Shown: positions 2,472 to 21,206 of the stretch, in pieces
How positions within the stretch are numbered: the stretch's first letter is position 1
Layout: each line of letters begins with the position of its first letter
Origin: a virus
DNA length: 61,774 nt
Strand: one strand, 5' to 3'
IMG/VR virus record: IMGVR_UViG_3300045988_110955
The notes under the pieces: model-generated
What the model saw: the letters and a program-made list of their open reading frames with translations, nothing else
Told to the model about the DNA's origin: nothing
The model's database searches: none
Made by a program: the position numbers and the translations under genes

Positions 2472-2585
2472 TTTGCTTTTTAATATATTAACCCTATATT
2501 TGTAGGACATAACAAAAAAAGAAATTAGAGCCTAAGAGCCATACCCGGCGGGAGTCATATCCTGCGGGGTATGGCTCTTTTTATT
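2472..2585 (+). promoter_or_regulatory. Late cassette copy A: TTTG-N19-TATATTTG promoter boxes followed by AGAGCC-TA-AGAGCC, a long hairpin and a U-tract
   Basis: -33 TTTG at 2472-2475 and -7 TATATTTG at 2495-2502. Hairpin at 2535-2578, then TTTTTATTT. Nearly identical to 21098-21206. Confidence 0.6.
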
Positions 2586-2594
2586 TATACCGAC

Positions 2595-3551
2595 ATGGAA
2601 CCGTATAGAAGCATATTATTTAAGACCAAGTCCACGGACGTGGATGAGAAAGGAATAGTCAAGGTGGCCGTTAATGGTATCGGGATAAAGGACAGCGACG
2701 GCGATATATCGTCTCCCGGTTCTTTCTCCAAGACGCTCCAAGAGAATTTCAACAGGTGCAAGTGGTTTCTCAACCATGACAAGACCAAGCTTCTTGGCTG
2801 CCCTATAGAGGGAGTGGAGGAGGATGGCAATCTGGTCATGACCGGGCAGATCAATTTAAAGAAGCAGATAGGCGTAGAGACGCTGGAGGATTACAAGCTA
2901 TACAGGGATCATGGCAAGACCTTGGAGCATTCCGTGGGCGTCAGGGCCGTGAAGCGGGATCCCAATAACCCGGCTATCGTTAAGGAGTGGTTCTTGGGCG
3001 AGTATAGCACGCTGACCCATTGGGGTGCTAATCCTCAGACATTCTTGATGGATATAAAGGAATTGAGGGGTAGTGACTTGAGAGATCATATAAATATGAT
3101 GCGTGACGCTTTAAATAAGAGATATAGCGGAGATAAGCTCAAGGCTCTTGAGGCTAACATATCTATCGTAGAGAAAGCGTTGATCGGATCTAATATAGTA
3201 CAGTGCCCTCATTGCGGGCTGGCTTTCGATTATGGGTCAGTACCGGAACACACGTTGGAGAGCCAAGTGATCGATGCCGTCGGTGACTATTCACGATGGA
3301 TAACGGAGGATGTGGTATATCAGGAGATGGAAAAGATCAAGCCGGAGTTACAAGACCGTATCTTGGAGATAATCAACTCCAAGAAATCCGTTGATGATTT
3401 CGCCTCTTATGTCCGCTGCCCTAAATGTTATTCCAGAATATATAGAAGCAACACCCTTATATCTGAGCCGGAAGACTCCACTCAGATAGAGAAACATAAA
3501 GCCGCTAGATGCACTTTAGGGTCTCTAGGTGATCTTATTAATAACAATTAA
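2595..3551 (+). CDS. HK97-family prohead protease (S78-like) with a C-terminal double CxxC zinc-ribbon extension
   Basis: DSDGDISSPGSF...WFLNHD...LLG motif pattern. CPHCG and CPKCY lie in the C-terminal third. The track start 2571 lies inside the cassette hairpin, so ATG 2595 is preferred. Confidence 0.8.
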   Translation: MEPYRSILFKTKSTDVDEKGIVKVAVNGIGIKDSDGDISSPGSFSKTLQENFNRCKWFLNHDKTKLLGCPIEGVEEDGNLVMTGQINLKKQIGVETLEDYKLYRDHGKTLEHSVGVRAVKRDPNNPAIVKEWFLGEYSTLTHWGANPQTFLMDIKELRGSDLRDHINMMRDALNKRYSGDKLKALEANISIVEKALIGSNIVQCPHCGLAFDYGSVPEHTLESQVIDAVGDYSRWITEDVVYQEMEKIKPELQDRILEIINSKKSVDDFASYVRCPKCYSRIYRSNTLISEPEDSTQIEKHKAARCTLGSLGDLINNN

Positions 3552-3562
3552 TCAATTTATTT

Positions 3563-5233
3563 ATGTTGAAGAAAGGTTTTTATGAGAATTTAGGAGGTCT
3601 CGCTATCATGGCGTTGACCTTGGTGGTTTTTGCCGTTATCGCATGCGTAGGCGATCCGGCCTATGCCTTGGCGGTTGCGCCGGTATTGTCCTTCTCCGGT
3701 TTCGCCAAGAAGGAGAGTGAGTTGAGTGACGAGGAGAAACAAACGCTTGGGACTATCGAGAAGATGGTCAACAAGTGTCTGGAGGATTACGGATCTAATG
3801 TCATAGACAGGAAGGAGTACGAGGAGACGATGTCCGAGATTAGCGAGAAGCTTAAATCTCTAGGTTCCGGTAATAACAATAAGGAAGTCGCGGAGATTCG
3901 TGATATCATCAAGTCCATGGGCAAGGAGATTGAGCAAATGAAGGGGCGTGGCATCACCTTGGGGGGGGATAGCCCTCTTGAGAAAAGTATCAATGAGTTC
4001 CTTGACTCTGAGAAATTCAAGCAATATGTAGATGGTAAGACGAAGTCCTCCGGGAATTTCCATTTGGATTTGAAGGACGTGGTCAGTATGACGGATAGTT
4101 ATACGGGCAATATCTTGATCAGTCAGCAGCAAAACAGGGTCGTTACGCAGGTAAGCGAGAAAAAGATCAATTTCCGTAATCTCATGAGCGTCGATCAGGG
4201 TGATCCTGCCTTCCCGATGTTGACATGGCAGTTGATCTACGACTTGGATCGTAACGCCACTTTCGTGTCCGAGAACGGGCGGTTATCCCAATCATCCTTC
4301 AAGTTAAAGGAGGAGAGCTCGGAGGTTAAGCGTGTCGGTACCTTCCTCTATTTGTCCAAGAGATTGCTCAAATCTAGGGTATATGTTCGCTCATGGTTGA
4401 TCAATCGCTTATCCTCATGGGTAAGGATGGCCGAGGATTTCCAGATCATGTTCGGTGATGGAACGGGTGATAACCTGAAAGGTATCACCAAATACGATGG
4501 TGTTAAATGCGTTTCCGATATCATAACCGACGCGGTTGTCAGCGGAGAGGCCGGATCTATCAAGGGAGCGAGAAGCTACAATGGCGGAAAAGCCACTATC
4601 GTGGAGTTTACCAACCCGCAGGACAAGATCGTCGACGGCCAGAAGATCAAGATAGAGGGTGTAACCACGTTCACGGCTTTGAACGACACTTTCGACGTCC
4701 ATAAGATGAATGATCGGGAGATCATGGTCGAGGTTGCTTATACAGGCTCAGGGGTGTTTACCTCCGCTACTTTCGAGGTGAAGAATAATTTCTTCAACAC
4801 CGTCGCCTCCCCGAACCTAGGGGACGCTGTCAAGGCTATCTTTGGCGTCATGACGTACGCTGAGTATACCCCGAATATGATCGCCATGAACCCATCCACC
4901 TTGTTTGAGATCGAGACCTTGAAGGATACGTCCGGTCGGGACTTGAATCTCGTGACGTTGGTGAACGGCGTGAAATACGTGGCCGGAAGACCCGTTGTCG
5001 AGACCACTTGTATCATGCCGGGGTATTATTTCGTAGGGGACATGGTTAACGGGGCCTCCTTGGTGGATTATACCTCTATCAATATCGAGTTCGCCGATGA
5101 TATCGAGAGCCGATTGAAAAACCAGACGGCGGTGATCGTGGACGAGGAGGTTATCATGCCGGTATACAACCCGTGGGCGTTCGCCTATGGCAAGTTATCC
5201 GACGTATTGACCGCTATCAAGAAATCCTCTTAA
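3563..5233 (+). CDS. Major capsid protein, HK97 fold, with an N-terminal coiled-coil delta domain
   Basis: Coiled-coil N-terminus. FVSENGRL...MFGDGTGDNLKGI matches the HK97 MCP signature. Follows the protease. Confidence 0.9.
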   Translation: MLKKGFYENLGGLAIMALTLVVFAVIACVGDPAYALAVAPVLSFSGFAKKESELSDEEKQTLGTIEKMVNKCLEDYGSNVIDRKEYEETMSEISEKLKSLGSGNNNKEVAEIRDIIKSMGKEIEQMKGRGITLGGDSPLEKSINEFLDSEKFKQYVDGKTKSSGNFHLDLKDVVSMTDSYTGNILISQQQNRVVTQVSEKKINFRNLMSVDQGDPAFPMLTWQLIYDLDRNATFVSENGRLSQSSFKLKEESSEVKRVGTFLYLSKRLLKSRVYVRSWLINRLSSWVRMAEDFQIMFGDGTGDNLKGITKYDGVKCVSDIITDAVVSGEAGSIKGARSYNGGKATIVEFTNPQDKIVDGQKIKIEGVTTFTALNDTFDVHKMNDREIMVEVAYTGSGVFTSATFEVKNNFFNTVASPNLGDAVKAIFGVMTYAEYTPNMIAMNPSTLFEIETLKDTSGRDLNLVTLVNGVKYVAGRPVVETTCIMPGYYFVGDMVNGASLVDYTSINIEFADDIESRLKNQTAVIVDEEVIMPVYNPWAFAYGKLSDVLTAIKKSS

Positions 5234-5244
5234 TACATAATGAC

Positions 5245-5442
5245 ATGAGGGTTTCTATAATTATAACGGGTGAGGAGCTGGAGGTCGACAAGGTCATTCA
5301 GGAGAATTCCATACGAAAGGAGCTTGGCATGATCGATATATCCTCAAAGACGCCGGTTGGGACAAGAAAGAGAATCCCGGACACGGATACTAAGACATCC
5401 GTCTTTGGGGACTCGAAAATGTCACTTGATAAAGATAAATAG
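5245..5442 (+). CDS. Small hypothetical protein
   Basis: ATG at 5245, just after the capsid stop. 65 aa. Confidence 0.35.
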   Translation: MRVSIIITGEELEVDKVIQENSIRKELGMIDISSKTPVGTRKRIPDTDTKTSVFGDSKMSLDKDK

Positions 5443-5444
5443 CG

Positions 5445-5945
5445 ATGATAATAGACAATGCGTACTTCAAGGGAGACCTTAGGATACAGGGACTCGTGAT
5501 ACCGGAGGACGGGGGATTCTCCAATGAGGCTTCCAATGCCATATCGGAGAACGTGGTATGGTATATCGAGACCTACGGGGACGAGTACCTCGTCTCGCTC
5601 ATGGGAGGATATTATGACTCATTCGTCGATTACGCCGATAATGGCAGGAAGGGAAACGACATGTTTGATTATATCCTAGGGATATTGAGATCGGATAGGT
5701 CTCCCATGGCTATGTATGTCTATTTTCATTACCAGAGAAACGAGACGCTAATATCCGTATCCTCCACGTCCGATGACGTGGACGTGAGGCGGATATTAGC
5801 GCATACCTCAAGGATGATGACCCAAGCTTGGAATAATATGGTGGATATCAACATCGGGATATCGGATCGCATAAGGGAGTCTTTCAAGGAGGACATGGAT
5901 ATTGACAGGAATATATTGACCCATATAAATGAGATGAATATATGA
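5445..5945 (+). CDS. Hypothetical virion protein (head-tail joining region)
   Basis: 166 aa. ATGA-type coupling with the next ORF. Call is by position. Confidence 0.6.
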   Translation: MIIDNAYFKGDLRIQGLVIPEDGGFSNEASNAISENVVWYIETYGDEYLVSLMGGYYDSFVDYADNGRKGNDMFDYILGILRSDRSPMAMYVYFHYQRNETLISVSSTSDDVDVRRILAHTSRMMTQAWNNMVDINIGISDRIRESFKEDMDIDRNILTHINEMNI

Positions 5946-6454
5946 ATGTCTTGGTGGATATATTCAGGGATATCGTCGCTGGCGTTTCAAAAGACGTTGG
6001 GTATATGGTCAATTACCAATTCGGTGATTGGCAATATATGGCCAAGACGCTTTCCGCCATGGGGAAGGCACCCGTAACGGCGGGAAGGAAATATCCTATG
6101 ATAGGGTTATATTCCCCGTTCGACGAGGACAAGTCCAACCCTTCATTAACGTCCGTGAGCCTTTCCTTGATAATAGCCGTGAATACGTTGGGGAATTATA
6201 CCAATGAGGAGCGATTGGAGAAGTCCTTCAAGGCTACGTTGTATCCGGTATATGACAGCCTTATAAGGAGGATATCCAACGATCGCAAGTTTGATATAGG
6301 CCCCGGGGCGATAGTATCCCATGTGAAGACCGATAATTTCAGGTATGGAAGGGCTGGCGTGTATGGCGAGGGGAAAAGCGAGTTCGACGATCGCATAGAC
6401 GCTATTGATATTAAGGATTTAAGATTAAATGTAAAAAATATAACATGTAGATAA
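5942..6454 (+). CDS. Hypothetical virion protein (head-tail joining region)
   Basis: 170 aa, tightly packed in the structural operon. Confidence 0.6.
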   Translation: MNVLVDIFRDIVAGVSKDVGYMVNYQFGDWQYMAKTLSAMGKAPVTAGRKYPMIGLYSPFDEDKSNPSLTSVSLSLIIAVNTLGNYTNEERLEKSFKATLYPVYDSLIRRISNDRKFDIGPGAIVSHVKTDNFRYGRAGVYGEGKSEFDDRIDAIDIKDLRLNVKNITCR

Positions 6455-6456
6455 TT

Positions 6457-7305
6457 ATGGCAGTAAAAATGTTCAGGGACTGCGGTTCCGAGATTTTCAA
6501 TACCGGCACGAGCAAGTGTCCGTTTGTTCCCGACTATATCAAGGCGATCATACTCACTCCGGTAGGTATGACGTTCAAGATATCCGATTTTGACACGAAG
6601 CTGGGAGAGTACGCCCACGCCGATCGTCCGAACCGTGTCTATCCGATCTCGACGATCGCTGAGTACGCCACTTCCGGAGGCGAGGCCCAGACATCCGCTA
6701 CCGGTTATGGCTCGTCCAAGATCACGGGTTATAGCGAGCTTGTCGAGACTTATACGATGAACGATTATGACGAGGGCTTACGAACCAATCTCATGAAGCT
6801 CAAGAACGAGAGCATGAGGGTGATCTTCATCGACAAGAATAATGTCGTATATGGAGAGAAGACCGATACGGAAGGTGATTTCAGGGGATATGAGCTCGGT
6901 GCCGTTTATCCGGGCGGACAGAGGTTCAAGAGCTCCGGAGAGAACGCATCGCTTACGATCAACCTCGTTTATAAGGATGTTGAGAAAGCATGGATGAACG
7001 CTATATCTTTCACTAGCGATATCGATATCTTGGACGAGGCGAAGGGATTGGTCTGGGTGGATGTCAAGAAATTACCCGAAGGAGAGAATAAGTTTAAGGT
7101 GGTGGAGCATTACGGAGGTTTTGACCTTACCGAGATGTACGGGACGTTGTTAGGTAACTCCTCTGTATGGAATAACGCTTCTGCGGCTACTTATAACGCT
7201 GATGACGGCACTCTTACTTTGACCCCTTCATCCGGCACTCCCGCGCTCAAGAGGCCATCCGAGTTATACGCCGAGGACGTTAAAGGAATAGAGCAATGGT
7301 CATAA
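6457..7305 (+). CDS. Putative major tail (tube) protein
   Basis: 282 aa. The call is by position only, between the connector genes and the tape measure. Confidence 0.4.
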   Translation: MAVKMFRDCGSEIFNTGTSKCPFVPDYIKAIILTPVGMTFKISDFDTKLGEYAHADRPNRVYPISTIAEYATSGGEAQTSATGYGSSKITGYSELVETYTMNDYDEGLRTNLMKLKNESMRVIFIDKNNVVYGEKTDTEGDFRGYELGAVYPGGQRFKSSGENASLTINLVYKDVEKAWMNAISFTSDIDILDEAKGLVWVDVKKLPEGENKFKVVEHYGGFDLTEMYGTLLGNSSVWNNASAATYNADDGTLTLTPSSGTPALKRPSELYAEDVKGIEQWS

Positions 7306-7556
7306 ACGGGGTATCGTTCAATGATGAGGCTTGTCTCGGTATGGGAAGGAAGGCTTTCGTGAAGGCTCACGAGGGATCTTTCTTCCTTGACCGGGGAATG
7401 GCGGATCGAAGGAGGATACTATGTGACGCTTATGATATAATGGAGAGGAACCATGGGGACGATAGCGGGAGTGGCGAACGCCGTGAGGACGCTGGAGAAG
7501 AACTTCTGGCCGGAGGTTACGAACAGCTTGAGGGAGAGCGAGGGATTGATCCATGA
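7296..7556 (+). CDS. Hypothetical protein whose 3' third overlaps the next ORF
   Basis: 86 aa. The last ~35 codons overlap 7453..8001 and look low-complexity. Confidence 0.4.
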   Translation: MVINGVSFNDEACLGMGRKAFVKAHEGSFFLDRGMADRRRILCDAYDIMERNHGDDSGSGERREDAGEELLAGGYEQLEGERGIDP

Positions 7557-8001
7557 CTTGATCACTGATCAACTCATGTCCGGGTTAGACGAGAACAAGG
7601 AGCCTTTGAAGCCTACCTATCTGGATGACCCGTATTTCGTGGAGACCACGAAGACCCCAAAGGCGGCGAGGGCCAAGGCCAGATGGTACAAGGCGATGAA
7701 GGAAAGCATAACCCCGCCTAGGTCCTCTGACATACTCCATCTTCCGCCACGAGACCCTAACACCCCCAACCTTATCATACGAGGCGATTACCACGCCAGT
7801 ATAACGCCGATCGTGCAAGGCGGCAAGGATGGTGGCAAGATAGTCACGAGATCCATCGGTTTCTATGCCGGTGACGACGCTTTAGAGAAGAAATACGGCC
7901 CCGGTCATCTGGGTTTGACCCCGGAGGCTAGGGCTTATTTGATTGAGGAGCGGGTTGTTCCCGCGTTGGATAAGTTATTCAAGAAATACGGGTTCAAATG
8001 A
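7453..8001 (+). CDS. Hypothetical structural protein
   Basis: 182 aa. A stop at 7438-7440 in its frame fixes the start near 7453. Confidence 0.6.
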   Translation: MGTIAGVANAVRTLEKNFWPEVTNSLRESEGLIHDLITDQLMSGLDENKEPLKPTYLDDPYFVETTKTPKAARAKARWYKAMKESITPPRSSDILHLPPRDPNTPNLIIRGDYHASITPIVQGGKDGGKIVTRSIGFYAGDDALEKKYGPGHLGLTPEARAYLIEERVVPALDKLFKKYGFK

Positions 8002-8198
8002 TAAAGCCGTGCAATTGCGCCTCGCAGAACAAGGCGATGGCCACATACGAGAACATAAGGAGGCTGGCTATCAAGATGGCCGTTTCCGATAAACGCATTT
8101 ACGTGCTTATCCGTAAAACGGATGGCACGTTTGCCTTCGAGCCTTTAGATGCCATGGTATCTAAAGGCGATATTGTTGAATATATCCATTATTTATAA
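7998..8198 (+). CDS. Small hypothetical protein
   Basis: 66 aa, with a 4-nt overlap with the upstream ORF. Confidence 0.5.
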   Translation: MIKPCNCASQNKAMATYENIRRLAIKMAVSDKRIYVLIRKTDGTFAFEPLDAMVSKGDIVEYIHYL

Positions 8199-8203
8199 AT
8201 AGT

Positions 8204-8800
8204 ATGGCGAATATATACACGACATGCGACGAGATACCCTTATGCAAGTTCATCGAGATGTACAAGGGAAATCTTAACGCCCTTATAAAAGGAGGGAGGA
8301 CCAAGCCCACCGAAGGGGAGTTAAGGAAAGCGGCGATGGGGCTTATTGACGAGTATTCCGTTATAACCGGTAACAAGAATATCGCTATCGAGATAGAGGA
8401 TCGGTCAAGGGCGGTGGATTGCAATATCAAGCTTATCCTGTTGGAGTCAGCAGATCATTTGATAGACGCTATGATGTACGCTGACGCTTCGGATATTCTT
8501 GGCAGGGTAGGTATCCGCATGCCGGAGGAGCCGGGAGAGCAAGATCTGATCGTCGCTAAAAAGAGAATCCAGTCCAAGATGTCACAAGTGAAATATAGCC
8601 TGAGCGTTCTGGATAGGAACAAGTCTAAGGTGGTAGACCCCAAGGATAAAGATTTCACCCGTGAGAGAATGATCGTGTCCACCTATTTCAAGATGCGTAT
8701 CGATCCTGACACGTTCACCGCTGCCGAGTACGGGAATATGATAAGGATTATGTTTAACCAATTAGAGGACATGAGGAATTATGGCGGGAAACGAGACTAA
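8204..8800 (+). CDS. Putative tail assembly chaperone (positional call)
   Basis: 198 aa, immediately upstream of and overlapping the tape measure start. Confidence 0.4.
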   Translation: MANIYTTCDEIPLCKFIEMYKGNLNALIKGGRTKPTEGELRKAAMGLIDEYSVITGNKNIAIEIEDRSRAVDCNIKLILLESADHLIDAMMYADASDILGRVGIRMPEEPGEQDLIVAKKRIQSKMSQVKYSLSVLDRNKSKVVDPKDKDFTRERMIVSTYFKMRIDPDTFTAAEYGNMIRIMFNQLEDMRNYGGKRD

Positions 8801-11800
8801 GATCACTGATATAGTAGGGAAAGAGGCGTTTGATCAACTGGAGCGTCTGGATAGGAAATTAGCGGATACGCAGAATGTCTATATCGGGTTGGTAAAAGAG
8901 ATAGGGAAAGGGTTGACGATAAATCCATCAAGCTTGTCAGAGTTGAACGCCAAGATCGAGGAGTACAAGAAAAATGTATCAGCGCTTAAAAGCACGATTG
9001 ACACTCTCAATAAGACCAATGACCAGTACAAGAGAAAGATTGATGAGCTGATAGAGGTTAACAAGAGATATGCGGAAGCGGCTGGGAAAGTTCAAAATAG
9101 TTTAGATCAATCATCCTCTTCCGTAGCCAAGGAATCAAACGCTATCTCGGAGAACATGAAAGCCAAGCAACAAGAGGTTGTCATAAGTCAGGAATTGAAG
9201 GGACTCATTGACCAGACATTGGGATCTAGGGAGGAGAATATACGCAGGGTCGCTCAAGAAAGGACGATATTGGCCCAACTATCCAAGGAGAAAAGCCAAT
9301 TGAATAAAATGGAGAAAAGCGGGGCTATCTCAACTAAAGATGCCGCGCAAAAGAGGCAGGATCTGGTAAGGTCAGAATTGCTTCATCGAGAATCCTTGAG
9401 AGAACTGTTGAACATTCTTACGAATGAGACGAAAATGATCAACTCGGCCAACGATAGTTATCAAGAGCAATCGTTGCAATTGGAGAGGCTGAGAAAGGCG
9501 TATCGGATGCTTTCCACGGAAGCCGCTAACAGCAAGTTAGGAGTAGAGTTGCAAAAGAATATAGCGGCTTTGGACACTCAGGTAAAATCTGTTGATAAAA
9601 GTCTGGGACAGCATCAGAGAAACGTGGGTAATTATGTCTCCACATGGGATGGAATGGGAAACGCAATCAATCAATTAACCCGTGAGTTTCCCGCATTCTC
9701 GGTATCTCTACAGACCGGCTTTCTCGCTATCTCTAACAATATCCCTATATTGGTAGACCAAATATCTCGGATAAGGAAGGAGAACGCCGCCTTACGGGAG
9801 GAGGGACTGAAAGGTGTTCCCGTGTGGAAGCAAATAGCTAAGTCCGCTTTGTCTTTGAATACCTTGTTGTCGGTTGGTATAACTCTACTTACCGTATATG
9901 GTAAGGATATCTTTGAGTGGGGTAAAAACTTATTGTCATCCTCTAGCTCGGCTAAGGCCGCTTCGGAAGCCCAGAGAGACTTGAATTCATCCACCGGGGA
10001 TTATGCCAAGGCTTTAAAGAACTCGACATCATCATATGGGGAGAATCTTGTAACATTACGCAACTTACAAGCTGAATGGAATAATTTAGGAGGTAATCTC
10101 AATAAGCAGAAGCAATTTATCATCGACAATGCCTCTGAGTTTAAGAAATTAGATGTGTCAGTTACGGATGTTAATGACGCTGAGAATCTGCTAGTAGATA
10201 ATACGGAGGCTTTTATTAACGCCATGTCGTTAAGAGCGCAAGCCGCCGCCGGACAAAAATTGGCACAAGAAGAATACTCCAAGGCTTTACAGAAAACTAT
10301 TGAGGCGGACAATAAGTTAAAGGAAGCAGAAGAGGCGGAAAAGAATAGAACCGTAGGTGGAGCTCTAAAGATAGGAGCTAGTATAGATGAGTTTTTTGGA
10401 TTAAAGAGAGATTGGGATAAATTATCTGATCAATACGTTGAATCCCTCAGGGAGGAAGCGGACGCTTCCCAGAAAGAGGCGGATGCCTTCAATGCGGCTG
10501 GGGACGTATATCTTGATTATGTCTCTAAACGGTTAAAGGGAGCGAAAGAGATAATGGATAATGCCGGGATAAGTGATTACTCTAACGAGGAGAAACTTAA
10601 ACGACAGCAGGAACAAATAGAACGAGAGGCCAAGCGTAGGGGGAAATTAGAGATGGAGGCCGAACGGAATATTCAGGAGGCCCGTCTTAATGTGATGGAT
10701 GAGGGATATAAGAAAGACCGTCTTCTCTTGGAACAATCTTTCCAGAAACGGATAGATGACGTAAAGACGAAAGGCGTAAGGGTTAATGAGCAAATCGAGG
10801 CTATTGAGGCTGAGAGAAGCAAGAAGTTGGCGGAATTCGACCGTAAGATCTCGGAGCAAAGGGCTAATGAGGAGGCTCAAAATCGTCTTGCGATTGCAGA
10901 AAAAGGTAGCATGGATGAGCTTAATGCCCGTCTAGTCATATTACAATTGCAAAGAGATAAGGAATTAAAAGAGGCTGATAAGACTGAACAGGATAAGTCT
11001 TTGATTGTCGATAAATACAATAAACAAAGGCAGGATCTCTATAGAGATTATTATAAAAACTTGATGTCAACGCAACAATCTCAAAATGAAATATTCCTTT
11101 CTCAAAGGCAGATAGAGATAAACGAAGAGCTTAACATCTTGGCTAAACAATATGAGCAAGGGATTATCAAGAAAAAAGAATATGAGAAACAGAAATCGGA
11201 TTTGGAGCATCAGTATGCTATGGAGTCATTGAACAGCCAATTGCAGATATTGGAGTCAAATCTTTACTTATTTAGCGGGAATGAGCGACTTGAGAAAGAG
11301 AAAGAGATAGCTCGCCTCCGTGTTCAATTATCTAAAGAGACCAGCGATAAAATCATAGAGGATGCCAAACGAGAGGAAGAGGAGCGAAAAAAAGTAGAAC
11401 AGGCTAAAAAGCGCTTGATACAAGAATCTATATCTGCTATCATATCAATCGGTAATTCATTATTTCAACGTCAAATAGATAATGTAGATGCTGAAATAGA
11501 GGCTAACCAAGATGAGTATGACGCTAAGGTTGAGACTATAGACGCTCTTGCCGAGAAGGATATAATAACGACAGAGGAGGCCGAGGCCCGCAAGCGTGCG
11601 GCGGAGGAAGAGACCAGCCGCAAGAACAAGGAACTGGAGAAGAAAAAAGCCGAGTTGCAGACTAGACAGGCGAAGTTCCAGAAGGCGATGGATATAGCCC
11701 AGACTATAGCTGCCACATCTCTAGCTGTCACTAAAGCTTTGCCTAATTTTGTCCTAGCGGCACTAGTCGGGGCGATGGGTGCCGTACAACTCGCCACGAT

Positions 11801-12197
11801 CCTCGCCCAACCCATCCCCAAATATGCCCATGGTACCGACAATCACCCCGGCGGTCTGGCTATCGTTGGCGATGGAGGCCGTAGCGAGGCGGTATTGGTA
11901 GGAGATAAAGCGTACATTACCCCGGATAAGCCCACCTTGCTGTCATTGCCTGCGGGAGCCGAGGTCGTTCCGGATCTCAATGATCCGGCTTTCCTTAGCC
12001 GCTTCGTGGATAACATGTATTGGATCACCCACAACAAGAAAGGCGAGCCGGTTCAGATCGTCAATAATTTCGACGCTGAAGGGATAATAAGGGCTAATAA
12101 TGAGATAAAAAAAGAGATAGGCAAGCTATCTAAAACCATATCCAAGGGCAGCAAGAGCATCGATTTCGAGAATTACAAGAGATCGAGGATGAATTGA
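8781..12197 (+). CDS. Tail tape measure protein
   Basis: 1138 aa. Long coiled-coil K/E/Q-rich stretches and internal hydrophobic segments (GFLAISNNIPILV, LAALVGAMGAVQLATILAQP). Confidence 0.85.
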   Translation: MAGNETKITDIVGKEAFDQLERLDRKLADTQNVYIGLVKEIGKGLTINPSSLSELNAKIEEYKKNVSALKSTIDTLNKTNDQYKRKIDELIEVNKRYAEAAGKVQNSLDQSSSSVAKESNAISENMKAKQQEVVISQELKGLIDQTLGSREENIRRVAQERTILAQLSKEKSQLNKMEKSGAISTKDAAQKRQDLVRSELLHRESLRELLNILTNETKMINSANDSYQEQSLQLERLRKAYRMLSTEAANSKLGVELQKNIAALDTQVKSVDKSLGQHQRNVGNYVSTWDGMGNAINQLTREFPAFSVSLQTGFLAISNNIPILVDQISRIRKENAALREEGLKGVPVWKQIAKSALSLNTLLSVGITLLTVYGKDIFEWGKNLLSSSSSAKAASEAQRDLNSSTGDYAKALKNSTSSYGENLVTLRNLQAEWNNLGGNLNKQKQFIIDNASEFKKLDVSVTDVNDAENLLVDNTEAFINAMSLRAQAAAGQKLAQEEYSKALQKTIEADNKLKEAEEAEKNRTVGGALKIGASIDEFFGLKRDWDKLSDQYVESLREEADASQKEADAFNAAGDVYLDYVSKRLKGAKEIMDNAGISDYSNEEKLKRQQEQIEREAKRRGKLEMEAERNIQEARLNVMDEGYKKDRLLLEQSFQKRIDDVKTKGVRVNEQIEAIEAERSKKLAEFDRKISEQRANEEAQNRLAIAEKGSMDELNARLVILQLQRDKELKEADKTEQDKSLIVDKYNKQRQDLYRDYYKNLMSTQQSQNEIFLSQRQIEINEELNILAKQYEQGIIKKKEYEKQKSDLEHQYAMESLNSQLQILESNLYLFSGNERLEKEKEIARLRVQLSKETSDKIIEDAKREEEERKKVEQAKKRLIQESISAIISIGNSLFQRQIDNVDAEIEANQDEYDAKVETIDALAEKDIITTEEAEARKRAAEEETSRKNKELEKKKAELQTRQAKFQKAMDIAQTIAATSLAVTKALPNFVLAALVGAMGAVQLATILAQPIPKYAHGTDNHPGGLAIVGDGGRSEAVLVGDKAYITPDKPTLLSLPAGAEVVPDLNDPAFLSRFVDNMYWITHNKKGEPVQIVNNFDAEGIIRANNEIKKEIGKLSKTISKGSKSIDFENYKRSRMN

Positions 12198-12206
12198 GCG
12201 TAAAAC

Positions 12207-12317
12207 TTGCTTTTCTTATTCTTTCTAGTTATATTTGCTGGACATACAAGAAGACAGTAGAGCCTAAGAGCCATACCCGATAGAGTCACGTCTATGGGGT
12301 GTGGCTCTTTTTGTTTT
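12207..12317 (+). promoter_or_regulatory. Late cassette copy B (diverged)
   Basis: TTGC-N19-TATATTTG (12230-12237), AGAGCCTAAGAGCC, hairpin at 12267-12309, then a U-tract. The inner stem is changed in a compensatory way relative to copy A. Confidence 0.55.
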
Positions 12318-12374
12318 TACTGGTCAGCCTACCACAACAGGCTAGGAAGATTTTGGGCGACAGCGGTCGCTAAC

Positions 12375-12422
12375 AGCCTCCTTGATACGATGTGTTGTGG
12401 CTCGTGTCGGGGAGGCTTTTTC
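12375..12422 (+). terminator. Rho-independent terminator
   Basis: AGCCTCC / GGAGGCT stem followed by TTTTT. Confidence 0.6.
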
Positions 12423-12526
12423 ATTAAGAGGTGCCAAAGTAATCAAAATAACAAAGTCGTTTTGATCTTGTGGCTAAAATTGCGGGAGAAAAAGATAATA
12501 ATATAACAAGATAAATACGATTGTTC

Positions 12527-13186
12527 ATGAAGACAAATCAAGAGATGATCAGAAAAATGGGTAATTTCAATGTTATCCAGCGGACAAAGGATGGCATGTT
12601 TAATGCCACTGATTTATTGAAGCAATGGAATAATCAATCGTGCAGCGAAAGAAAAATGGATAATTTTTTCGCTTCTCATAAAACCAATGAGTTCATTAAT
12701 ACAATAATTGAACGGGAAAAACTAAATACCCCAAAAATGGTGTATTTAAAAACTAGAGGCAAAAAAGGTGGTACATGGATGCATCCGATGCTGTTTATAG
12801 ATTTTGCGATGTGGATTAATCCAGAATTTAAATACGATGTCATAAAATTCGTACATGATGAGATGATCCGTTACCGTAACGAAGCCGGTGATGCTTACAG
12901 GGAATTGTCCTCCGCTGTCATGAAGATCGTTCCGAATGATTTCATGCCAAAAGCCATGAGAAAAATAGGAGAGGCTTTAAACTGGATAATCTTCAACGGC
13001 CACGAGAGATTATTGAGAAACAAGCACGGTGACGAAAGCAAGCAACGTGAACTGTGGCAACTGGAGAAGAAGGTAGCCGATCTGATAAACGAGGGATTTA
13101 TTACCTCATACGATCCGCTTATCAACTATCTACGGAAGCTTTATAATAAAAAGAATAATCCAGCGGTATTTAACCAAGCGGTATAG
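12527..13186 (+). CDS. KilA-N domain protein
   Basis: DGMFNATDLLKQW...TNEFI...GGTWMHPMLFIDFAMWINPEF matches the KilA-N pattern. The track start 12521 is TTG; ATG is at 12527. Confidence 0.75.
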   Translation: MKTNQEMIRKMGNFNVIQRTKDGMFNATDLLKQWNNQSCSERKMDNFFASHKTNEFINTIIEREKLNTPKMVYLKTRGKKGGTWMHPMLFIDFAMWINPEFKYDVIKFVHDEMIRYRNEAGDAYRELSSAVMKIVPNDFMPKAMRKIGEALNWIIFNGHERLLRNKHGDESKQRELWQLEKKVADLINEGFITSYDPLINYLRKLYNKKNNPAVFNQAV

Positions 13187-13214
13187 AAGATTTTAAACAA
13201 CTAAAAATTAAAAT

Positions 13215-14630: not shown

Positions 14631-14698
14631 GACTTTTAAATTTAATTAGTACAAGATATATATATGATCGATAAATGACCATAAAAAAGAAGGTTTAT

Positions 14699-15051: not shown

Positions 15052-15089
15052 ATGTAAAAATCCCCTCCTTGCGTAAATGCGGGGAGGGG
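15052..15089 (-). terminator. Rho-independent terminator of the XRE-lipoprotein-YbjQ operon
   Basis: CCCCTCC / GGAGGGG stem. On the - strand it is followed by ATTTTTAC. Confidence 0.7.
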
Positions 15090-15097
15090 GGAAATGC

Positions 15098-16096: not shown

Positions 16097-16167
16097 GATG
16101 TTTATTTTATATAATAATGAAAATAACTAAAATAGAAGGAGAATGAGTGATATAAATGTTAGGTGAA

Positions 16168-16758
16168 TTATTCAGTGAAATATTTTGGAATAAAGTTTAG
16201 ATCCTTATCAAAAACATAATATAGCGTGTCTAGGATATTAAAAGCGTTCTCTCCATTTTGTTTTACAAATGATGTTTTTAAGAATACTTTAAACTCAAAT
16301 ATTGTATTTGGGTTTTTACGATTATCTATCAAGGTGTCTAATTTTTTAGCCATGTCTGTGTAATAACTTAAAGAGTCTCCGTATTCTTGTAGTTTCTTAT
16401 TGGCCTCTTGTGCATTATTAATAGACATATCTCTTAAATCTTTCATGCCTATATTGTTATATAAGGTTGCTTCTTGGCTTTCTTTTTTGATTATACTAAG
16501 TTGTTCTTTTTGTTTTTTTAGAAAAGATTCTGCTGTTTCTATATACTTTGCAGCTTTGATTTTGTCAATAATATTCTCGTCTATAGTATCATATCCAATA
16601 GGAGTAAAACTATGAAATTCAACTTTAAGATTATCCTTAAATGCCATATCATTAATATATGATTTGACCTTACCTGACATTATATCTATATTTTTCTCAT
16701 ATCCATTTTTGCATGATGTTAACAAAATAGACATGATGGATAGTATTATGTATTTCAT
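16168..16758 (-). CDS. Lipoprotein
   Basis: Signal peptide with lipobox (ILLTSC). 196 aa. Confidence 0.7.
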   Translation of the reverse strand: MKYIILSIMSILLTSCKNGYEKNIDIMSGKVKSYINDMAFKDNLKVEFHSFTPIGYDTIDENIIDKIKAAKYIETAESFLKKQKEQLSIIKKESQEATLYNNIGMKDLRDMSINNAQEANKKLQEYGDSLSYYTDMAKKLDTLIDNRKNPNTIFEFKVFLKTSFVKQNGENAFNILDTLYYVFDKDLNFIPKYFTE

Positions 16759-16842
16759 TTGTTAAACATAATATTGATTAATATTACGCAAATATATATT
16801 TTATTGTATTTGTGTTTATGATATTATATGTGTTTTACAACA

Positions 16843-17097
16843 TCATTCCACCTTAATCTTCAATGGATGCCCGCAATTAGGGCATTTATACCCTCCATCA
16901 TTCTCTTTTTGTACTTCAGAAGGGGAGGCGAAAAGCTGCCATACTGGTACTCCTATAGCATTAGCTATATTGGTTATTACTTTTACTGAAGGATTACCCG
17001 ATATGCTTTGGTTTAAAGCACTCAAGGTTACATTTAATTTTTCTGCGACTTGTTTAGTAGTCATGCCTTGTTCTTCTATAGCTTCTCTTATTCTCAT
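16843..17097 (-). CDS. XRE-family HTH regulator with a C-terminal CxxC zinc ribbon
   Basis: MTTKQVAEKLNVTLSALNQSISGNPS HTH; YKCPNCGHPL at the C-terminus. Confidence 0.8.
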   Translation of the reverse strand: MRIREAIEEQGMTTKQVAEKLNVTLSALNQSISGNPSVKVITNIANAIGVPVWQLFASPSEVQKENDGGYKCPNCGHPLKIKVE

Positions 17098-17144
17098 GAT
17101 GTAAAGTTATTTCTTGCACAAAAGTATTTTTATTAATCATACAA

Positions 17145-17224
17145 ACAAGGTATGTCTTGTGTAATTAATGTTAAAACAAAGATATATCTTGTTTTATTTA
17201 TTGTTTAGACAAGATATAGCTTGT
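17145..17224. promoter_or_regulatory. Three ACAAG-N6-CTTGT operator-like palindromes in the divergent promoter region
   Basis: Sites at 17145-17160, 17175-17193 and 17209-17224. The last abuts a TATATTTG box (17224-17231) facing 17258. Confidence 0.55.
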
Positions 17225-17257
17225 ATATTTGCATCGTCAAAATAAAACAACAGTACA

Positions 17258-17509
17258 ATGGCAACACAGAAATATAACAAGAGTGAGATTATGAAAGAAG
17301 CGCATAAGATCTATAGAGAGTGCAAGATGTACGGACGTACATTCGGCTCGTGCCTTAAACAGGCTTGGGGATCGGCGAAAGCGATGGTGCAGCTTGCGGA
17401 AAAACGTGCGGCGTTTGCCAAGGAACTTGCGGAAAGATCCCATGCTGTAAGACTTACTCATGTCGGTATGGCTAGCCTTTACGGTAACAGGGTTTATTCG
17501 GGTGATTGA
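17258..17509 (+). CDS. Hypothetical protein
   Basis: 83 aa. First gene of the rightward operon. Confidence 0.6.
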   Translation: MATQKYNKSEIMKEAHKIYRECKMYGRTFGSCLKQAWGSAKAMVQLAEKRAAFAKELAERSHAVRLTHVGMASLYGNRVYSGD

Positions 17510-17532
17510 TATACATTAATAATATAAGGAAT

Positions 17533-17793
17533 ATGGAAACGATAGAAGTTTTGAAGAACGTGCAAAGGATTGCGTTGGAGTGTATGATCGGAAGGAAACC
17601 GGTACATATAAATGTAGGCGTTATGCCGGAGACGGGCGGTTTATGCGTCACCGTACAGGACAGATCTCACGAGGTAGTCTACATGGAGATATTCAATGAC
17701 TGGATGCCGGATCACAAGGAATGGAATAAAAAGACCTACGATAGGTTCATGAGTGTAATTAGCGACATGACCTGCGTAAGGCTTGCGGGATAA
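17533..17793 (+). CDS. Hypothetical protein
   Basis: The track start 17506 is TTG; ATG is at 17533. Confidence 0.55.
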   Translation: METIEVLKNVQRIALECMIGRKPVHINVGVMPETGGLCVTVQDRSHEVVYMEIFNDWMPDHKEWNKKTYDRFMSVISDMTCVRLAG

Positions 17794-17887
17794 CTCGAAC
17801 GACGGGGAGAGGATCGGAAGTAGATGCCCCTCCGGTAATATCGCCGGAGGGTTTGAAGGGATTTTCAACAACAAATATATTAAGATC

Positions 17888-18628
17888 ATGAAAGAATTAG
17901 TATTTAAAGGCGATAATAATCGCATTTTCACGAACAGCTTATTGGTCGCTGAGAAGTTTGGCAAATTACATAAAGATGTAATGAGAGCGATAAAAGCATT
18001 ATTGACATCGGCGCAAAATTGCGCCAGTCTCTTCATAGAGTCGGAATATCCAGACAATTATGGACGTATTCAGCCAATGTATATTATGAATCGTGATGGA
18101 TTTACATTATTGGTTATGGGCTTTACTGGTGATAAGGCCCTTCAATTCAAGTTAGATTATATTGAGGCTTTCAACCGTATGGAAGAGCAGATCAAGACTG
18201 GAGATTTCCAGATTCCACAATCTTTCTCGGAGGCGTTGATGTTGGCGGCCAAGCAGCAAGAGCAGATAGAACAGGCAAATAGAACTATCAGCAAGCTCCA
18301 GCCCAAGGCCGATTTCGCGGACAAGGCTTTCGAGACCTCGGACAAGGTTGATATCGGTATGGCTGCGAAGATATTGAAATTAGGGTTCGGAAGAAACATC
18401 CTCTTCAAGAAGCTTAAAGAAATAGGCGTGTTCTTCTCCAACCGGAACGAGCCAAAACAGAAGTACATCAACGCCGGGTATTTCGAGATGACCGAGAAGT
18501 TTATTGAGAGGGAGAATCATCCGGGCTTTGTCGTGACGAAGGTACTCGTAACCCAGAAGGGGCTGGCTTACATAAACCATCTTCTGGGAGGTGATCCCGG
18601 TGACGGTAAGATTACTAGGATTGTTTGA
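17888..18628 (+). CDS. Rha-family regulatory protein fused to a KilAC/ANT antirepressor domain
   Basis: FTNSLLVAEKFGKLHKDVMRAI...YIMNRDGFTLLVMGFTGDKALQFK (Rha). C-terminal ADFADKAF...AAKILKLG...INAGYFE (KilAC). ATG at 17888. Confidence 0.8.
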   Translation: MKELVFKGDNNRIFTNSLLVAEKFGKLHKDVMRAIKALLTSAQNCASLFIESEYPDNYGRIQPMYIMNRDGFTLLVMGFTGDKALQFKLDYIEAFNRMEEQIKTGDFQIPQSFSEALMLAAKQQEQIEQANRTISKLQPKADFADKAFETSDKVDIGMAAKILKLGFGRNILFKKLKEIGVFFSNRNEPKQKYINAGYFEMTEKFIERENHPGFVVTKVLVTQKGLAYINHLLGGDPGDGKITRIV

Positions 18629-18765
18629 AAGATCCCCTTCCTTGACTATGTCAAGTATAAAATGTGACCTAAATAGATTAGATGTACGGATTAAGTACGT
18701 ATACCCAAGACTTTAACATTTTGTGACTTGAAAATAATTGTGAAATATTAAAAGATTGATTGAAT

Positions 18766-19062
18766 ATGAAAGAGAACGAGATTAAAAGCATCGTCGTGAA
18801 AGCCGACGGTAACGAGATCAAGGTTGACCACGCTCATGAGTTGGTTATTGGTGACTTGACCATAACCCCGGAAATGATGAGAGAGATAAAGAGTATGTCC
18901 ACTTGCCTGTTCTCTAAGGATATGGACGATATGATAGATACGCTTATCAATTTGAGTTGCGAGGGTAATTACGAGGACGGGTATATCATGGACAAGATGA
19001 GGGCCGTGTCATGCGTGAGGGATTTCTTGCGGGTGATCGAGAAAGATAATACGATTGATTAG
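18766..19062 (+). CDS. Hypothetical protein
   Basis: 98 aa from ATG 18766. Confidence 0.55.
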   Translation: MKENEIKSIVVKADGNEIKVDHAHELVIGDLTITPEMMREIKSMSTCLFSKDMDDMIDTLINLSCEGNYEDGYIMDKMRAVSCVRDFLRVIEKDNTID

Positions 19063-19150
19063 TTGATATTATCTTAATAGTCATTATCTTTGTGACAGAG
19101 CCAAAGAGCCGTACCGGAGACGTATTTGTCCCCGGACGGCTCTTCTTATT
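19063..19150 (+). promoter_or_regulatory. Late cassette copy D (most diverged)
   Basis: TTGA-N18-TATCTTTG (19085-19092), AGAGCCAAAGAGCC, hairpin at 19104-19144, then CTTATTT. Confidence 0.5.
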
Positions 19151-19153
19151 TAT

Positions 19154-21091
19154 ATGCGTATGATAAAAGCGGTATTATTGATAGGGGGGAAGAGGTATGA
19201 CGTGACCGATCACCTAAAGAACTGGGAGGACGTGGAGATATCGGCTAAGAGGAAGGATATTGGCGGTGTCGTTCGATCCTTCTCCAACAAGTTCGAGTTC
19301 GTGAAGGGGGCATACGACCTTCTTGAGGCCGAGTACCTATCCAATTATACGAAAGCCTCGGCCATATTGGTGATAGGCGTGTTGAACGATAGCTGGGGGT
19401 ATAACGAGAAGTTTCGTTGCAAGCTCGATTTCTCCACGTACCAGAGCGACGGGTATACGATATCCATAAACGCCATTGACGATAGCGTAGCGTCCATCAT
19501 CAACGCAAACAAGTCGCAGGTATACGATATCCCGGTGTCGGAGCTAAAGGAGGATACATTGTATTATGACAGGATCTATCTTAACAACAATACGAAATGG
19601 TCCATAAATCCAAATGTGGATCAAACGCAAGATGACGTATATGAGGTTATCATAAATACAAAAGACATATACACGCTATTGCCAATAACTTATATAGATA
19701 CAAATTTTGCCGTAAAGAACATAATAGATGTGTCGGATCAAATATTGAGTATCCATGAGGCTACTGGCGACAATTATATGATAAAAGGGATTACGCCACA
19801 TCCTATAAAAATAAAAATTTCATTCAGTATCAAAGCTGGTAAGACAAGTGAGGAGATCGTATTGGCCTTGTTTTTTGTTATACTAAACAAGGGAGGGGAT
19901 ATCTTACGAGAAGAAAGGACTTACATACCATTATCGGATACATATATAAATATAGATAAGACATTTGACATATCATTAGAACCGGACGATAGATTTGCCG
20001 TTTATTTCAACTCTGCGGGAGGTCATAGTACGGATATTCATTTGACAATTAAGGATGTAAAAGAGATATCCGTATCTTATATAGGTCGAAATAAGCCGGT
20101 AGAAATAGACGCTTTCTCCCCTAAAAAACTATTATCCTCGTTATTATCAAGGATGGGCGTGTCATTGTCCGGCGATATCGTCTCCGGTTCCATGCCTATA
20201 CCTTGGATGATGGCCGCTGAGAGCGTGAGAGGAATAAAGGACGCGAAGGTCCATACGTCCTTCTCCAAGTTCTGTGATTTCGCCAAGGCGTTGCTTGGGT
20301 ATGATTACGAGATACTGGATAATAGCGTGCGTTTCCGGCATATGAATGATTTCTTCGTCAATGAGACGAAAGAATTGGATCACGTGAGCAATATGGAGCT
20401 ATCCGTGGATGAGTCGTTGATATACTCTGGGGTTGAAATTGGATTCGACAAGCAGGACTATGATGAGATAAACGGGCGTGACGAGTTTCACTTCAAGAGC
20501 AGTTTCAGCACGGGATTGGACATAAAGGACAACATATTGTCATTGATAAGCCCGTATAGGGCAGATTGCTACGGATTGGAGTTTCTCGCTAACGAGCGTG
20601 ACGAGGAATCGAAGGATACGGATTCCGACAATGACATATTTATTGTCCACGCTAGGAAAGATGGGGATAGGTTAGTTCTGGTAAGAGAAGAGAATGGGGG
20701 AGCTATATATGCCGTTACGGGAGTATTGTTCTCCGACACTATCTTTAACGCCTCCTACTCGCCGAGAAATATGCTTCTTGTCAATAAGGAAAGGCTCGGG
20801 ATATGCACGGATTACCTGTCTTTCACGGCCTCGGACGGAAACTCCTCGATATCGATAGGAGGAGTATCGGAGACCCTTCCTATACCCCTGCCGGTTAACG
20901 ACCGGAGGATTAGGATTGATAAGGTGTCCTTGGAGACTCCGGGGTTATCCCCGTTCCCGGGTAATTACAGGGGCAAATTGTCGTTCTCGTACGCAGGGAG
21001 ATCGTACGAGGGATGGGTTAGCGAGATAACGGAGAAGATAGGGAAATACCAAACGGCATCCTATTCGCTGATATTGTCTAAAATTACATGA
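19154..21091 (+). CDS. Tail protein (distal-tail/baseplate position)
   Basis: 645 aa. First structural gene after the island. Has an AT-rich central segment. Confidence 0.5.
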   Translation: MRMIKAVLLIGGKRYDVTDHLKNWEDVEISAKRKDIGGVVRSFSNKFEFVKGAYDLLEAEYLSNYTKASAILVIGVLNDSWGYNEKFRCKLDFSTYQSDGYTISINAIDDSVASIINANKSQVYDIPVSELKEDTLYYDRIYLNNNTKWSINPNVDQTQDDVYEVIINTKDIYTLLPITYIDTNFAVKNIIDVSDQILSIHEATGDNYMIKGITPHPIKIKISFSIKAGKTSEEIVLALFFVILNKGGDILREERTYIPLSDTYINIDKTFDISLEPDDRFAVYFNSAGGHSTDIHLTIKDVKEISVSYIGRNKPVEIDAFSPKKLLSSLLSRMGVSLSGDIVSGSMPIPWMMAAESVRGIKDAKVHTSFSKFCDFAKALLGYDYEILDNSVRFRHMNDFFVNETKELDHVSNMELSVDESLIYSGVEIGFDKQDYDEINGRDEFHFKSSFSTGLDIKDNILSLISPYRADCYGLEFLANERDEESKDTDSDNDIFIVHARKDGDRLVLVREENGGAIYAVTGVLFSDTIFNASYSPRNMLLVNKERLGICTDYLSFTASDGNSSISIGGVSETLPIPLPVNDRRIRIDKVSLETPGLSPFPGNYRGKLSFSYAGRSYEGWVSEITEKIGKYQTASYSLILSKIT

Positions 21092-21097
21092 ATTTGT

Positions 21098-21206
21098 TTT
21101 GACAATTGATCCTTATCCCCTATATTTGTAGGACATAACAAAAAAGAAATTAGAGCCTAAGAGCCATACCCGGCGGGAGTCGTATCCTGTGGGGTATGGC
21201 TCTTTT
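21098..21206 (+). promoter_or_regulatory. Late cassette copy C
   Basis: TTTG-N19-TATATTTG (21121-21128) and hairpin at 21159-21203. About 95 percent identical to copy A by eye. Confidence 0.6.

Follow-up and report, generated by a model that had tools for sequence, protein, structure and literature searches.

Protein-dependent control of a terminator hairpin is an established kind of regulation, and a late-gene example close to the element studied here is the PR'-tR' region of bacteriophage lambda. There, a terminator lies no more than ~80 nt downstream of a constitutive-type promoter and ahead of the late genes; the expected product is a short abortive RNA, and the gene for the regulator, Q, lies just upstream of the late region. 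We know of no Q-like system of late-gene control described for Bacteroidota phages. Here we analyse an element of the same layout that occurs four times in IMG/VR virus record IMGVR_UViG_3300045988_110955, a stretch of 61,774 nt (hereafter the window, at its full length) that represents a temperate gut siphovirus of Bacteroidota type. Each copy, or cassette, joins a Bacteroidota −33/−7 promoter to a direct repeat, AGAGCC-NN-AGAGCC, a hairpin of 41–46 nt and a U-rich tract. The order of promoter, terminator-like hairpin and gene, which a preliminary description of the window had likened to lambda PR'-tR', is present in all four cassettes and conserved in relatives, and the architecture is therefore neither a chance arrangement nor a simple operon boundary. 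We propose, as a reading that stands about an even chance of being right, that the cassette is a cis-acting RNA switch at which a zinc-ribbon protein binds the tandem repeats, blocks the terminator and lets transcription read through into the late genes.

The comparison with lambda holds for the layout, as an analogy only. Q binds promoter DNA and a sigma-paused complex, is processive and serves a single promoter, whereas the phage studied here has four cassettes, in which the conserved element is an RNA-strand tandem repeat whose position overlaps that of the terminator's 5′ arm. It also has no Q homologue: PHROG and Pfam scans of ~70 window open reading frames (ORFs) found no regulator of the Q, N, NusG, sigma, RinA/ArpU or Ogr type. 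In its mechanics, the cassette may resemble LicT with its RAT site, or Com of phage Mu. For BglG, SacY and LicT, and for HutP, a protein-binding RNA site likewise overlaps the 5′ arm of a terminator and binding prevents the terminator; however, the folds of these proteins are unrelated (CAT-PRD, or the HutP hexamer), and the RAT is a small hairpin whereas the cassette offers a single-stranded tandem repeat. The Com-mom system is similar in having a zinc-finger protein of ~50–60 aa encoded immediately upstream of its target, and the partner proteins of comparable elements in Firmicutes match Com-like PHROGs. Com binds the RNA motifs GAG(N)2CC and CC(N)2-3GAG, often bipartite and flanking a hairpin, and the AGAGCC-UA-AGAGCC of the window contains CC-UAA-GAG, which resembles, in sequence only, the motif found by systematic evolution of ligands by exponential enrichment (PMC6483171). 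Unlike the Com hairpin, which hides the mom start codon for translational control, the cassette hairpin has a U-tract and excludes the start codon, and there are several target sites in one genome.

Cys_rich_KTR proteins of Tn916-like elements are also small zinc ribbons accompanied by a repeat whose second copy starts a terminator hairpin, with the difference that their repeats lie inside coding sequence, whereas those of the window are non-coding and predicted to be promoter-driven. Phage P2 Ogr/Delta shares with the present case a small zinc-finger protein and four late transcription units with a common sequence element, but Ogr acts on DNA dyads at about −55 via the alpha subunit of RNA polymerase, with no terminator involved. 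The pairs of promoter and RNase III site in T7 are again repeated promoter-then-hairpin modules between late genes, but their hairpins serve in processing and lack both U-tracts and flanking direct repeats. The combination of direct repeat and terminator as a switch was absent from Rfam and from the literature that we searched.

The window contains exactly four cassettes, all on the plus strand, which is the sense strand of the late genes, at 2472–2589 (A), 12207–12319 (B), 19063–19153 (C) and 21098–21213 (D). Four copies had been located there from the sequence alone, and a covariance model built from relatives returns these sites and no others (63–89 bits, E 1e-15 to 1e-22), with nothing else in the window above 12 bits and much lower scores on the reverse strand. 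The core pattern AGAGCCWAAGAGCC (AGAGCC-(T/A)A-AGAGCC) has four exact plus-strand occurrences in the window against 0.58 expected, and the full promoter pattern (−33 and −7 boxes, spacer 19–20) has four against 0.64 expected, one in each cassette. The −33 box is TTTG in cassettes A and D and TTG in B and C; together with the −7 boxes, these match the Bacteroidota sigma-ABfr consensus, TTTG at −33 and TAnnTTTG at −7 (PMC7366714). A fifth repeat-like site at 44034 on the minus strand (AGAGCT-AA-AGAGCC, one mismatch) lies within a primase/helicase coding sequence, has no hairpin and was discarded as chance.

Each cassette fills an intergenic gap, beginning 1–10 nt past the upstream stop codon. 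Cassette A separates the portal stop codon (2462) from the start of the protease gene (2595); its promoter comprises TTTG at 2472–2475, a 19-nt spacer and the −7 box TATATTTG at 2495–2502, its repeats occupy 2527–2532 and 2535–2540, and the hairpin (2534–2579) runs into a U-tract at 2580–2589. Cassette B follows the tape-measure stop (12197) by 10 nt, with (C)TTG at 12207–12209, a 20-nt spacer, TATATTTG at 12230–12237, repeats at 12259–12264 and 12267–12272, and a hairpin at 12266–12309 followed by UUUGUUUUU. Cassette C, of a short class, fits directly between the stop of ORF 18760–19062 and the ATG at 19154, with TTG at 19063–19065, a 19-nt spacer and the −7 box TATCTTTG at 19085–19092, which ends just 4 nt ahead of repeat 1; the repeats are at 19097–19102 and 19105–19110, the hairpin is at 19104–19144 and the U-tract is CUUAUUUAU. 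Cassette D, between the stop of ORF 19154–21091 and the ATG at 21222, has TTTG at 21098–21101, a 19-nt spacer, TATATTTG at 21121–21128, repeats at 21152–21157 and 21160–21165, and a hairpin at 21159–21204, then UUGGCGUUU. Cassettes A and D are 97% identical over 67 nt and share a 28-nt identical promoter core; the near-identical pair had been mislabelled A and C in the preliminary description and is in fact the first and fourth copies (2472 and 21098). Its account of copy B was accurate, both for an A-U to G-U change and for the exchange of the inner stem CGGGA/UCCUG for AUAGA/UCUAU.

The hairpin had been said to arise in the second AGAGCC, and in all four copies its 5′ arm opens one base ahead of repeat 2. 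Across the four copies, predicted folding energies range between −30 and −43 kcal/mol and z-scores between −6.5 and −7.6, and the stem is 19–20 bp long with a 1×1 internal loop. No cassette matches Rfam at the gathering score, and at the E-value threshold the sole hit is a chance Phe-leader match (E 2.2). A stem of this length exceeds that of typical terminators and sits exactly between cistrons, just after a promoter, which would suit a T7-like element of RNA processing or stability, with the ~20-bp hairpin being cleaved or protecting the 3′ end of the upstream and the 5′ end of the downstream mRNA. Such an element would leave the conserved unpaired repeat 1, the U-tract and the linkage to zinc-ribbon genes described below unexplained, and we consider it improbable.

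Intrinsic terminators require a stem that abuts a U-tract, and the cassettes have the sequence characters of this class. A U-tract had been claimed for every copy: cassettes A and B have at least five U in the next 8 nt and are both picked up by a terminator scan, whereas the tracts of C and D are present but weaker. A bidirectional terminator was rejected, as the upstream A-rich run is 12 nt away from the stem. A boxA-like reading of GCUCUUU was also dropped: these bases pair within the stem, and it is their complement that is conserved and unpaired. Transcripts that start at the promoter and end at the U-tract would be ~56–79 nt long. Promoter plus terminator is the accepted signature of intergenic small RNAs in Bacteroides (PMC7366714), and this signature, together with the predicted lengths, is what one would expect of four copies of a small RNA gene whose 55–80 nt product acts in trans, read-through being incidental. 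We regard that explanation as highly improbable: no further promoter serves the downstream genes, which begin 10–18 nt past the hairpin, and the RNA would consist mostly of variable stem, with no conserved single-stranded seed besides the repeats.

Start codons called within the hairpins had been suspected to be artefacts. ATG 2571 and GTG 21189 indeed lie in the 3′ arm, and the in-frame ATGs at 2595 and 21222 are the ones conserved in relatives. The conserved starts (2595, 19154/19160 and 21222) are all beyond the hairpin, 10–18 nt from its end in cassettes A, C and D, and the start codon is not sequestered. Bacteroidota initiate translation without dependence on a Shine-Dalgarno (SD) sequence, and this is the context in which translational control of the Com/mom type has to be weighed, with a zinc-ribbon protein binding beside a translation-inhibiting hairpin and opening it, and the ribosome loading on the U/A-rich tract. 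The proteins associated with such elements are Com-like, Com itself acts beside a hairpin and recognises GAG/CC motifs, and the window start codons follow the hairpin closely. However, they are outside it, cassette B is ~200 nt from the next ORF, many of the next genes in Firmicutes start 90–190 nt downstream or have an SD sequence of their own, and a U-run follows every hairpin, as in an intrinsic terminator. Translational control of this type therefore appears distinctly unlikely.

Absence of the cassette from related phages had been named beforehand as refuting; a search of IMG/VR with the pattern AGAGCCNAAGAGCCNTACC found it in at least 115 loci. Compared over 60 nt upstream plus 80 nt from repeat 1, the matches listed comprise 59 distinct versions. 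Their upstream sequences, taken as 45-nt contexts, are of 30 distinct kinds, all of which contain TAnnTTTG despite differing flanks, in keeping with a promoter of Bacteroidota type. The −7 box precedes repeat 1 by 20–25 nt in a long class and by 3–4 nt in the short class, and by 7 nt in two divergent copies found by the model; TTTG usually occurs ~19 nt further upstream, in surroundings that vary. In relatives the cassette stands ahead of the protease gene, of homologues of the ORFs at 19154 and 21222, of a portal gene and of KilA-N-like or other accessory genes. Five loci of a sister phage group (L248–L252, 8869–8922), whose zinc-ribbon ORF is 82% identical to that of the window, have a cassette between TerL and portal and not between portal and protease; the called portal start (8905/8906) falls inside the hairpin in four of the five, while the call in L251 (8929) is outside.

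The stem covaries. Across 49 distinct sequences, pairing is preserved in 95.7% of cells, compared with 36–57% when the partner column is slid, and compensatory double changes occur at seven pairs (62 cells), a level reached by none of 500 shuffles. G-U pairs are present at four positions of the stem. The lowest 7 bp are invariant, and the upstream AGAGCC repeat is likewise unchanging. Divergent copies replace the whole inner stem, AUACCC/GGGUAU giving way to GUAUACG/CGUAUAC or AUUCUC.../GGGAU, and retain both AGAGCC motifs and GGCUCU. Covariation that includes G-U pairs indicates selection on the RNA structure of this strand; selection is also on the sequence of both repeats, one of them unpaired.

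These data bear directly on recognition at the level of DNA, in which AGAGCC would be a loading site comparable to the Q-binding element or to ops, an operator, or a recombination linker, with no role for the palindrome beyond coincidence. It is true that the short-class repeats lie at the predicted start site, that the position of the repeat relative to the promoter varies, and that the cassettes border mosaic modules, with an accessory island between B and C. Yet the G-U pairs and the far lower reverse-strand scores imply selection on one transcribed strand, the repeat spacing is variable without helical phasing, and no homologue of a DNA-binding antiterminator was found among the scanned ORFs; we judge DNA-level recognition very unlikely. 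A DNA cruciform or palindrome was rejected separately, on the G-U pairs and the strand asymmetry.

The same design recurs in other phyla. We searched one genome per species for AGAGCC-NN-AGAGCC-N20-45-GGCTCTT and found, among the matches listed, dozens of clean hairpin-plus-T-tract sites in Lachnospiraceae, Roseburia, Oscillospiraceae and other Clostridia, and in Alistipes, Bacteroidaceae and Muribaculaceae, some of them with 3–10 tandem AGAGCC units. A small ORF with two CxxC knuckles often terminates at the motif, and often runs through the repeats (...IEPKSR) to a stop in the hairpin loop. An ORF of the form CxxC...CxxC ends at the motif in 20 of the 63 terminator-like hits listed; random positions drawn from the same loci give 13 of 2400. 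The motif-adjacent ORFs match Pfam family PF14205, Cys_rich_KTR, with E-values down to 1e-11 (26.9–44.8 bits for Firmicutes ORFs beside AGAGCC terminators, with a cutoff of 25.5), as well as PHROG 5602, the Com-like PHROG 6417 "translational regulator" and, weakly, phrog_13819 gpCom. The genes that follow KTR-type ORFs encode scaffold, TerL, portal or HNH-TerS. The distance from the hairpin to the next start codon is 90–190 nt in several Firmicutes loci, which fits termination and not masking of the start codon, and some of the next genes have their own SD sequence outside the hairpin. A search from the protein side, by tblastn with KTR-type ORFs, gave the same picture.

The repeat itself differs between these loci. 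In Flavonifractor phage Cormatin, a KTR gene between the replication initiator and HNH-TerS-TerL is followed by two copies of GCGCCUGAGCCA, the second of which is the 5′ arm of a terminator, and uncultured gut phages have CC(A/G)GAGC or AGACGC repeats in the same arrangement, again with copy 2 as the 5′ arm. In Streptococcus "phage" records that cover Tn916-like regions (L239, 1519–1730; L243; L246, 1498–1730; Streptococcus phage IPP61, phi-SsuFJNP8_rum and phi-m46.1), a KTR ORF comes directly after tet(M) or tet(O) and before the next regulator. Its C-terminal tail, ...EPDA(K/Q)TQSR, is encoded by AGAGCC-N14-AGAGCC, whose second copy opens the hairpin, and this tail may be conserved for the RNA rather than the peptide. 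We take the KTR ORF between tet(M) and the orf9-type regulator to be orf6 of Tn916. The spacing of the repeats varies (6, 8, about 16, 20 and 28 nt), without helical phasing. What is conserved is a direct repeat, the last copy of which provides a terminator with its 5′ arm, beside a small gene for a zinc ribbon of the Com/KTR type.

Rfam has no match at the motif in the Firmicutes or Tn916 loci, at either gathering or permissive thresholds, and a sequence search of the PDB with a KTR profile returned generic zinc ribbons and fingers only. In the literature on Cys_rich_KTR, PF14205, Tn916 orf6, antitermination in Bacteroides phages and zinc-ribbon antiterminators, we found no functional description. 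Among Muribaculaceae and Bacteroidales, a −7 box precedes an AGAGCC-NN-AGAGCC hairpin cassette in L192, L183 and L235; the cassette is ahead of helix-turn-helix excisionase-like genes in L192, L235 and L221, with an ORF of another type downstream in L183. Its occurrence ahead of excisionase-like genes means that the cassette is not confined to phage late genes. Other Bacteroidales copies (L142, L163 and L174) and a Muribaculaceae copy (L180) directly follow the 3′ ends of tRNAs.

The recurrence of this arrangement is relevant to the plainest alternative, namely that the cassettes are ordinary punctuation with no dedicated factor: host-type promoters and leaky terminators would set stoichiometry, and the duplicated AGAGCC would be a passenger of a cassette spread by duplication or recombination. 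Cassettes A and D are nearly identical, and their flanks are swapped in some relatives, which suggests recombination between copies. In L054 and L109 of IMG/VR the upstream flank of A is joined to the downstream flank of D, or the U-tracts are mixed, which suggests either recombination or assembly chimeras across repeated cassettes. In addition, no Q, NusG or sigma factor is recognisable among the ORFs scanned. Against this, neither repeat 1, which is unpaired, nor the lower stem varies while the remaining stem and the promoter flanks diverge, and the rule that a repeat serves as the 5′ arm reappears with different repeats, in other phyla, beside one protein family. We consider mere punctuation unlikely. 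Our tentative view, to which we give somewhat less than an even chance, is that the cassettes are the Bacteroidota form of an undescribed cross-phylum module, in which zinc-ribbon proteins of the Com/KTR type would be sequence-specific RNA-binding antiterminators whose target is a direct repeat with its last copy as the 5′ arm of an intrinsic terminator. These proteins would comprise PF14205 and its relatives, among them the product of the small ORF that follows tet(M)/tet(O) in Tn916-like elements.

Antitermination, or a hairpin-binding factor, had been suggested for the window without a candidate protein, and one can now be named. A 52-aa ORF at 59904–60062 on the plus strand (CPxH...CxxC, ...YYCWCKKCKKEIKIVMGK; full sequence MDFYNNSSQRQQVDVYCPVHHNWIGHYDYGSKGVYYCWCKKCKKEIKIVMGK) encodes a putative zinc ribbon and is the first gene of the packaging operon, its TGA overlapping the TerS ATG (ATGA, 60059–60062). 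Upstream of this ORF and of the TerS-TerL-portal operon is a promoter-like site at 59826–59840 on the plus strand, with a strong Bacteroidota −7 box (TATATTTG) at 59833–59840 and no AGAGCC cassette. The ORF is conserved, with 74–98% identity to database proteins and 80–100% in the loci of relatives, and it keeps its position ahead of TerS in relatives that likewise carry cassettes. Comparison of its family with a KTR-like set by hhalign gave 93.8% probability (E 1.7e-7) over 35 columns of shallow alignments, spanning the first knuckle and the CKKCKKEIKI segment, and BLASTP aligned it over 16 residues (E 3e-4) with an Alistipes ORF that abuts an AGAGCC terminator. An AlphaFold model is a four-strand zinc ribbon (pLDDT 71), for which the best non-self matches by Foldseek are phage "Cysteine-rich proteins" (E 0.03–0.05, TM ~0.6). 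Homology of the window ORF to the KTR/Com-like family is thus moderately supported, not proven.

From these features we infer promoter activity, termination, protein–RNA binding and the direction of regulation. A host promoter of the sigma-ABfr type would start a transcript at each cassette, with the two tandem AGAGCC motifs within ~0–25 nt. Repeat 2 would form the base of the 19–20 bp hairpin that abuts the U-rich tract, and unaided RNA would end as a product of ~56–79 nt; transcripts arriving from the upstream gene would also stop at the hairpin. A Com/KTR-type zinc-ribbon protein, for which ORF 59904–60062 is the candidate, would bind the tandem repeats as they emerge single-stranded and hold the lower 7 nt of the 5′ arm, such that GGCUC comes to lie between the upper hairpin and the U-tract. 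The hairpin that remains when the lower 5′ arm is taken away is predicted at −21 kcal/mol and ends 5 nt ahead of the U run. Termination would then fail, and RNA polymerase would continue into the protease and capsid genes, the island and the tail genes. In this phage, the target would have been joined to a host-type promoter and spread to four sites, with the regulator heading the packaging operon. The model accounts for the confinement of sequence constraint to the lower stem and the unpaired repeat, for the variable repeat spacing (6–28 nt), and for the fact that, in Firmicutes phages, the regulator gene immediately precedes the first terminator, an arrangement that would make a Q-like timing device.

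Several points weigh against this proposal. The candidate ORF adjoins none of the cassettes. It has no Pfam (including PF14205), Com or PHROG match of its own, and one of its zinc ligands is histidine (a CHCC pattern), in both of which it departs from Com. What ties it to KTR/Com is a comparison of profiles built from shallow alignments, together with a short match at CKKCKKEI, and spurious similarity is common among zinc ribbons. It is equally conceivable that the protein stabilises the hairpin and is a negative regulator. The U-tracts of cassettes C and D are mediocre. In the short class, to which copy C and some relatives belong, a start ~7 nt past the −7 box falls inside repeat 1, and RNA initiated at the promoter would therefore contain one complete repeat only. 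Among the comparisons outside the window, ~100 matches are expected by chance in the genome motif search and hits in GC-rich soil genomes are probably chance, and two KTR genes (L241 and L242) have downstream terminators without an obvious repeat.

The remainder of the genome agrees with a temperate life cycle. The contig is circular or circularly permuted (~61.7 kb), bases 1–55 being identical to 61720–61774, and the large terminase gene crosses the junction. A CI-like repressor (55310–56143) and an integrase (56406–57701) are encoded, and replication and recombination genes occupy the minus strand at ~36.8–54.2 kb. The late region runs on the plus strand from TerS (~60059) across the junction, in the order TerS, TerL, portal (1011–2462), protease (2595–3551), major capsid (3563–5233) and tape measure (8781–12197); an accessory island with KilA-N/Bro/Ant-like genes and some minus-strand genes follows at 12.5–19.06 kb, and tail genes begin at 19154. 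Megablast of 25 kb against cultured phages gave a single 131-bp match, and the phage thus has no annotated close relative among them. Between cassette B and the island, a structured leader of ~100 nt (12320–12421, plus strand) is conserved in relatives and ends in a second strong, terminator-like hairpin (~12374–12418; GCCUCC...GGAGGC, UUUUUC) ahead of the KilA-N/Bro-like gene at 12521–13186; the leader may act as a further checkpoint or give rise to a small RNA.

The window also contains a complete diversity-generating retroelement at 27234–31098. Its variable repeat (VR, 29245–29361) lies at the 3′ end of a tail-fibre-like gene (27234–29390) and its template repeat (TR) is at 29807–29923, with all 19 TR/VR mismatches at TR adenines; an accessory ORF (29430–29783), a reverse transcriptase ORF (30004–31098) and an Rfam RT-17 RNA match (29964–30049) complete the region. 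Period-10 tandem repeats (GGTTATCTTC/GGTAATGTTG) at 45566–45625, inside or beside a replication-initiator-like gene (45215–45922), are possibly iterons, and a 24-nt repeat occurs in three copies at 52569–52647. The minus strand carries tRNA sequences at 52060–52100, 52353–52436 and 54693–54779, which include a gene for tRNA-Arg(CCT) and an atypical, tRNA-like one of undetermined anticodon; an extra 41-nt copy of a tRNA 3′ part (…GCCTCCGGGAGTCGAACCCGG), 293 nt off, could be a tRNA remnant.

For the annotation of these phages, the immediate consequence is that start codons called within cassette hairpins are wrong. If the model of an antiterminated RNA switch is true, ~50 aa of protein and ~60 nt of RNA would constitute a portable switch for engineering in Bacteroides and Clostridia, and the widespread orphan family PF14205/Cys_rich_KTR would gain a function. 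The model would also suggest how, in Tn916-like elements, transcription reads through beyond tet(M)/tet(O), and would explain how structural genes stay silent behind constitutive host-type promoters in abundant temperate gut phages. Should the cross-phylum module hold as well, it would set the timing of late genes in many phages of the gut and, in conjugative transposons, control read-through.

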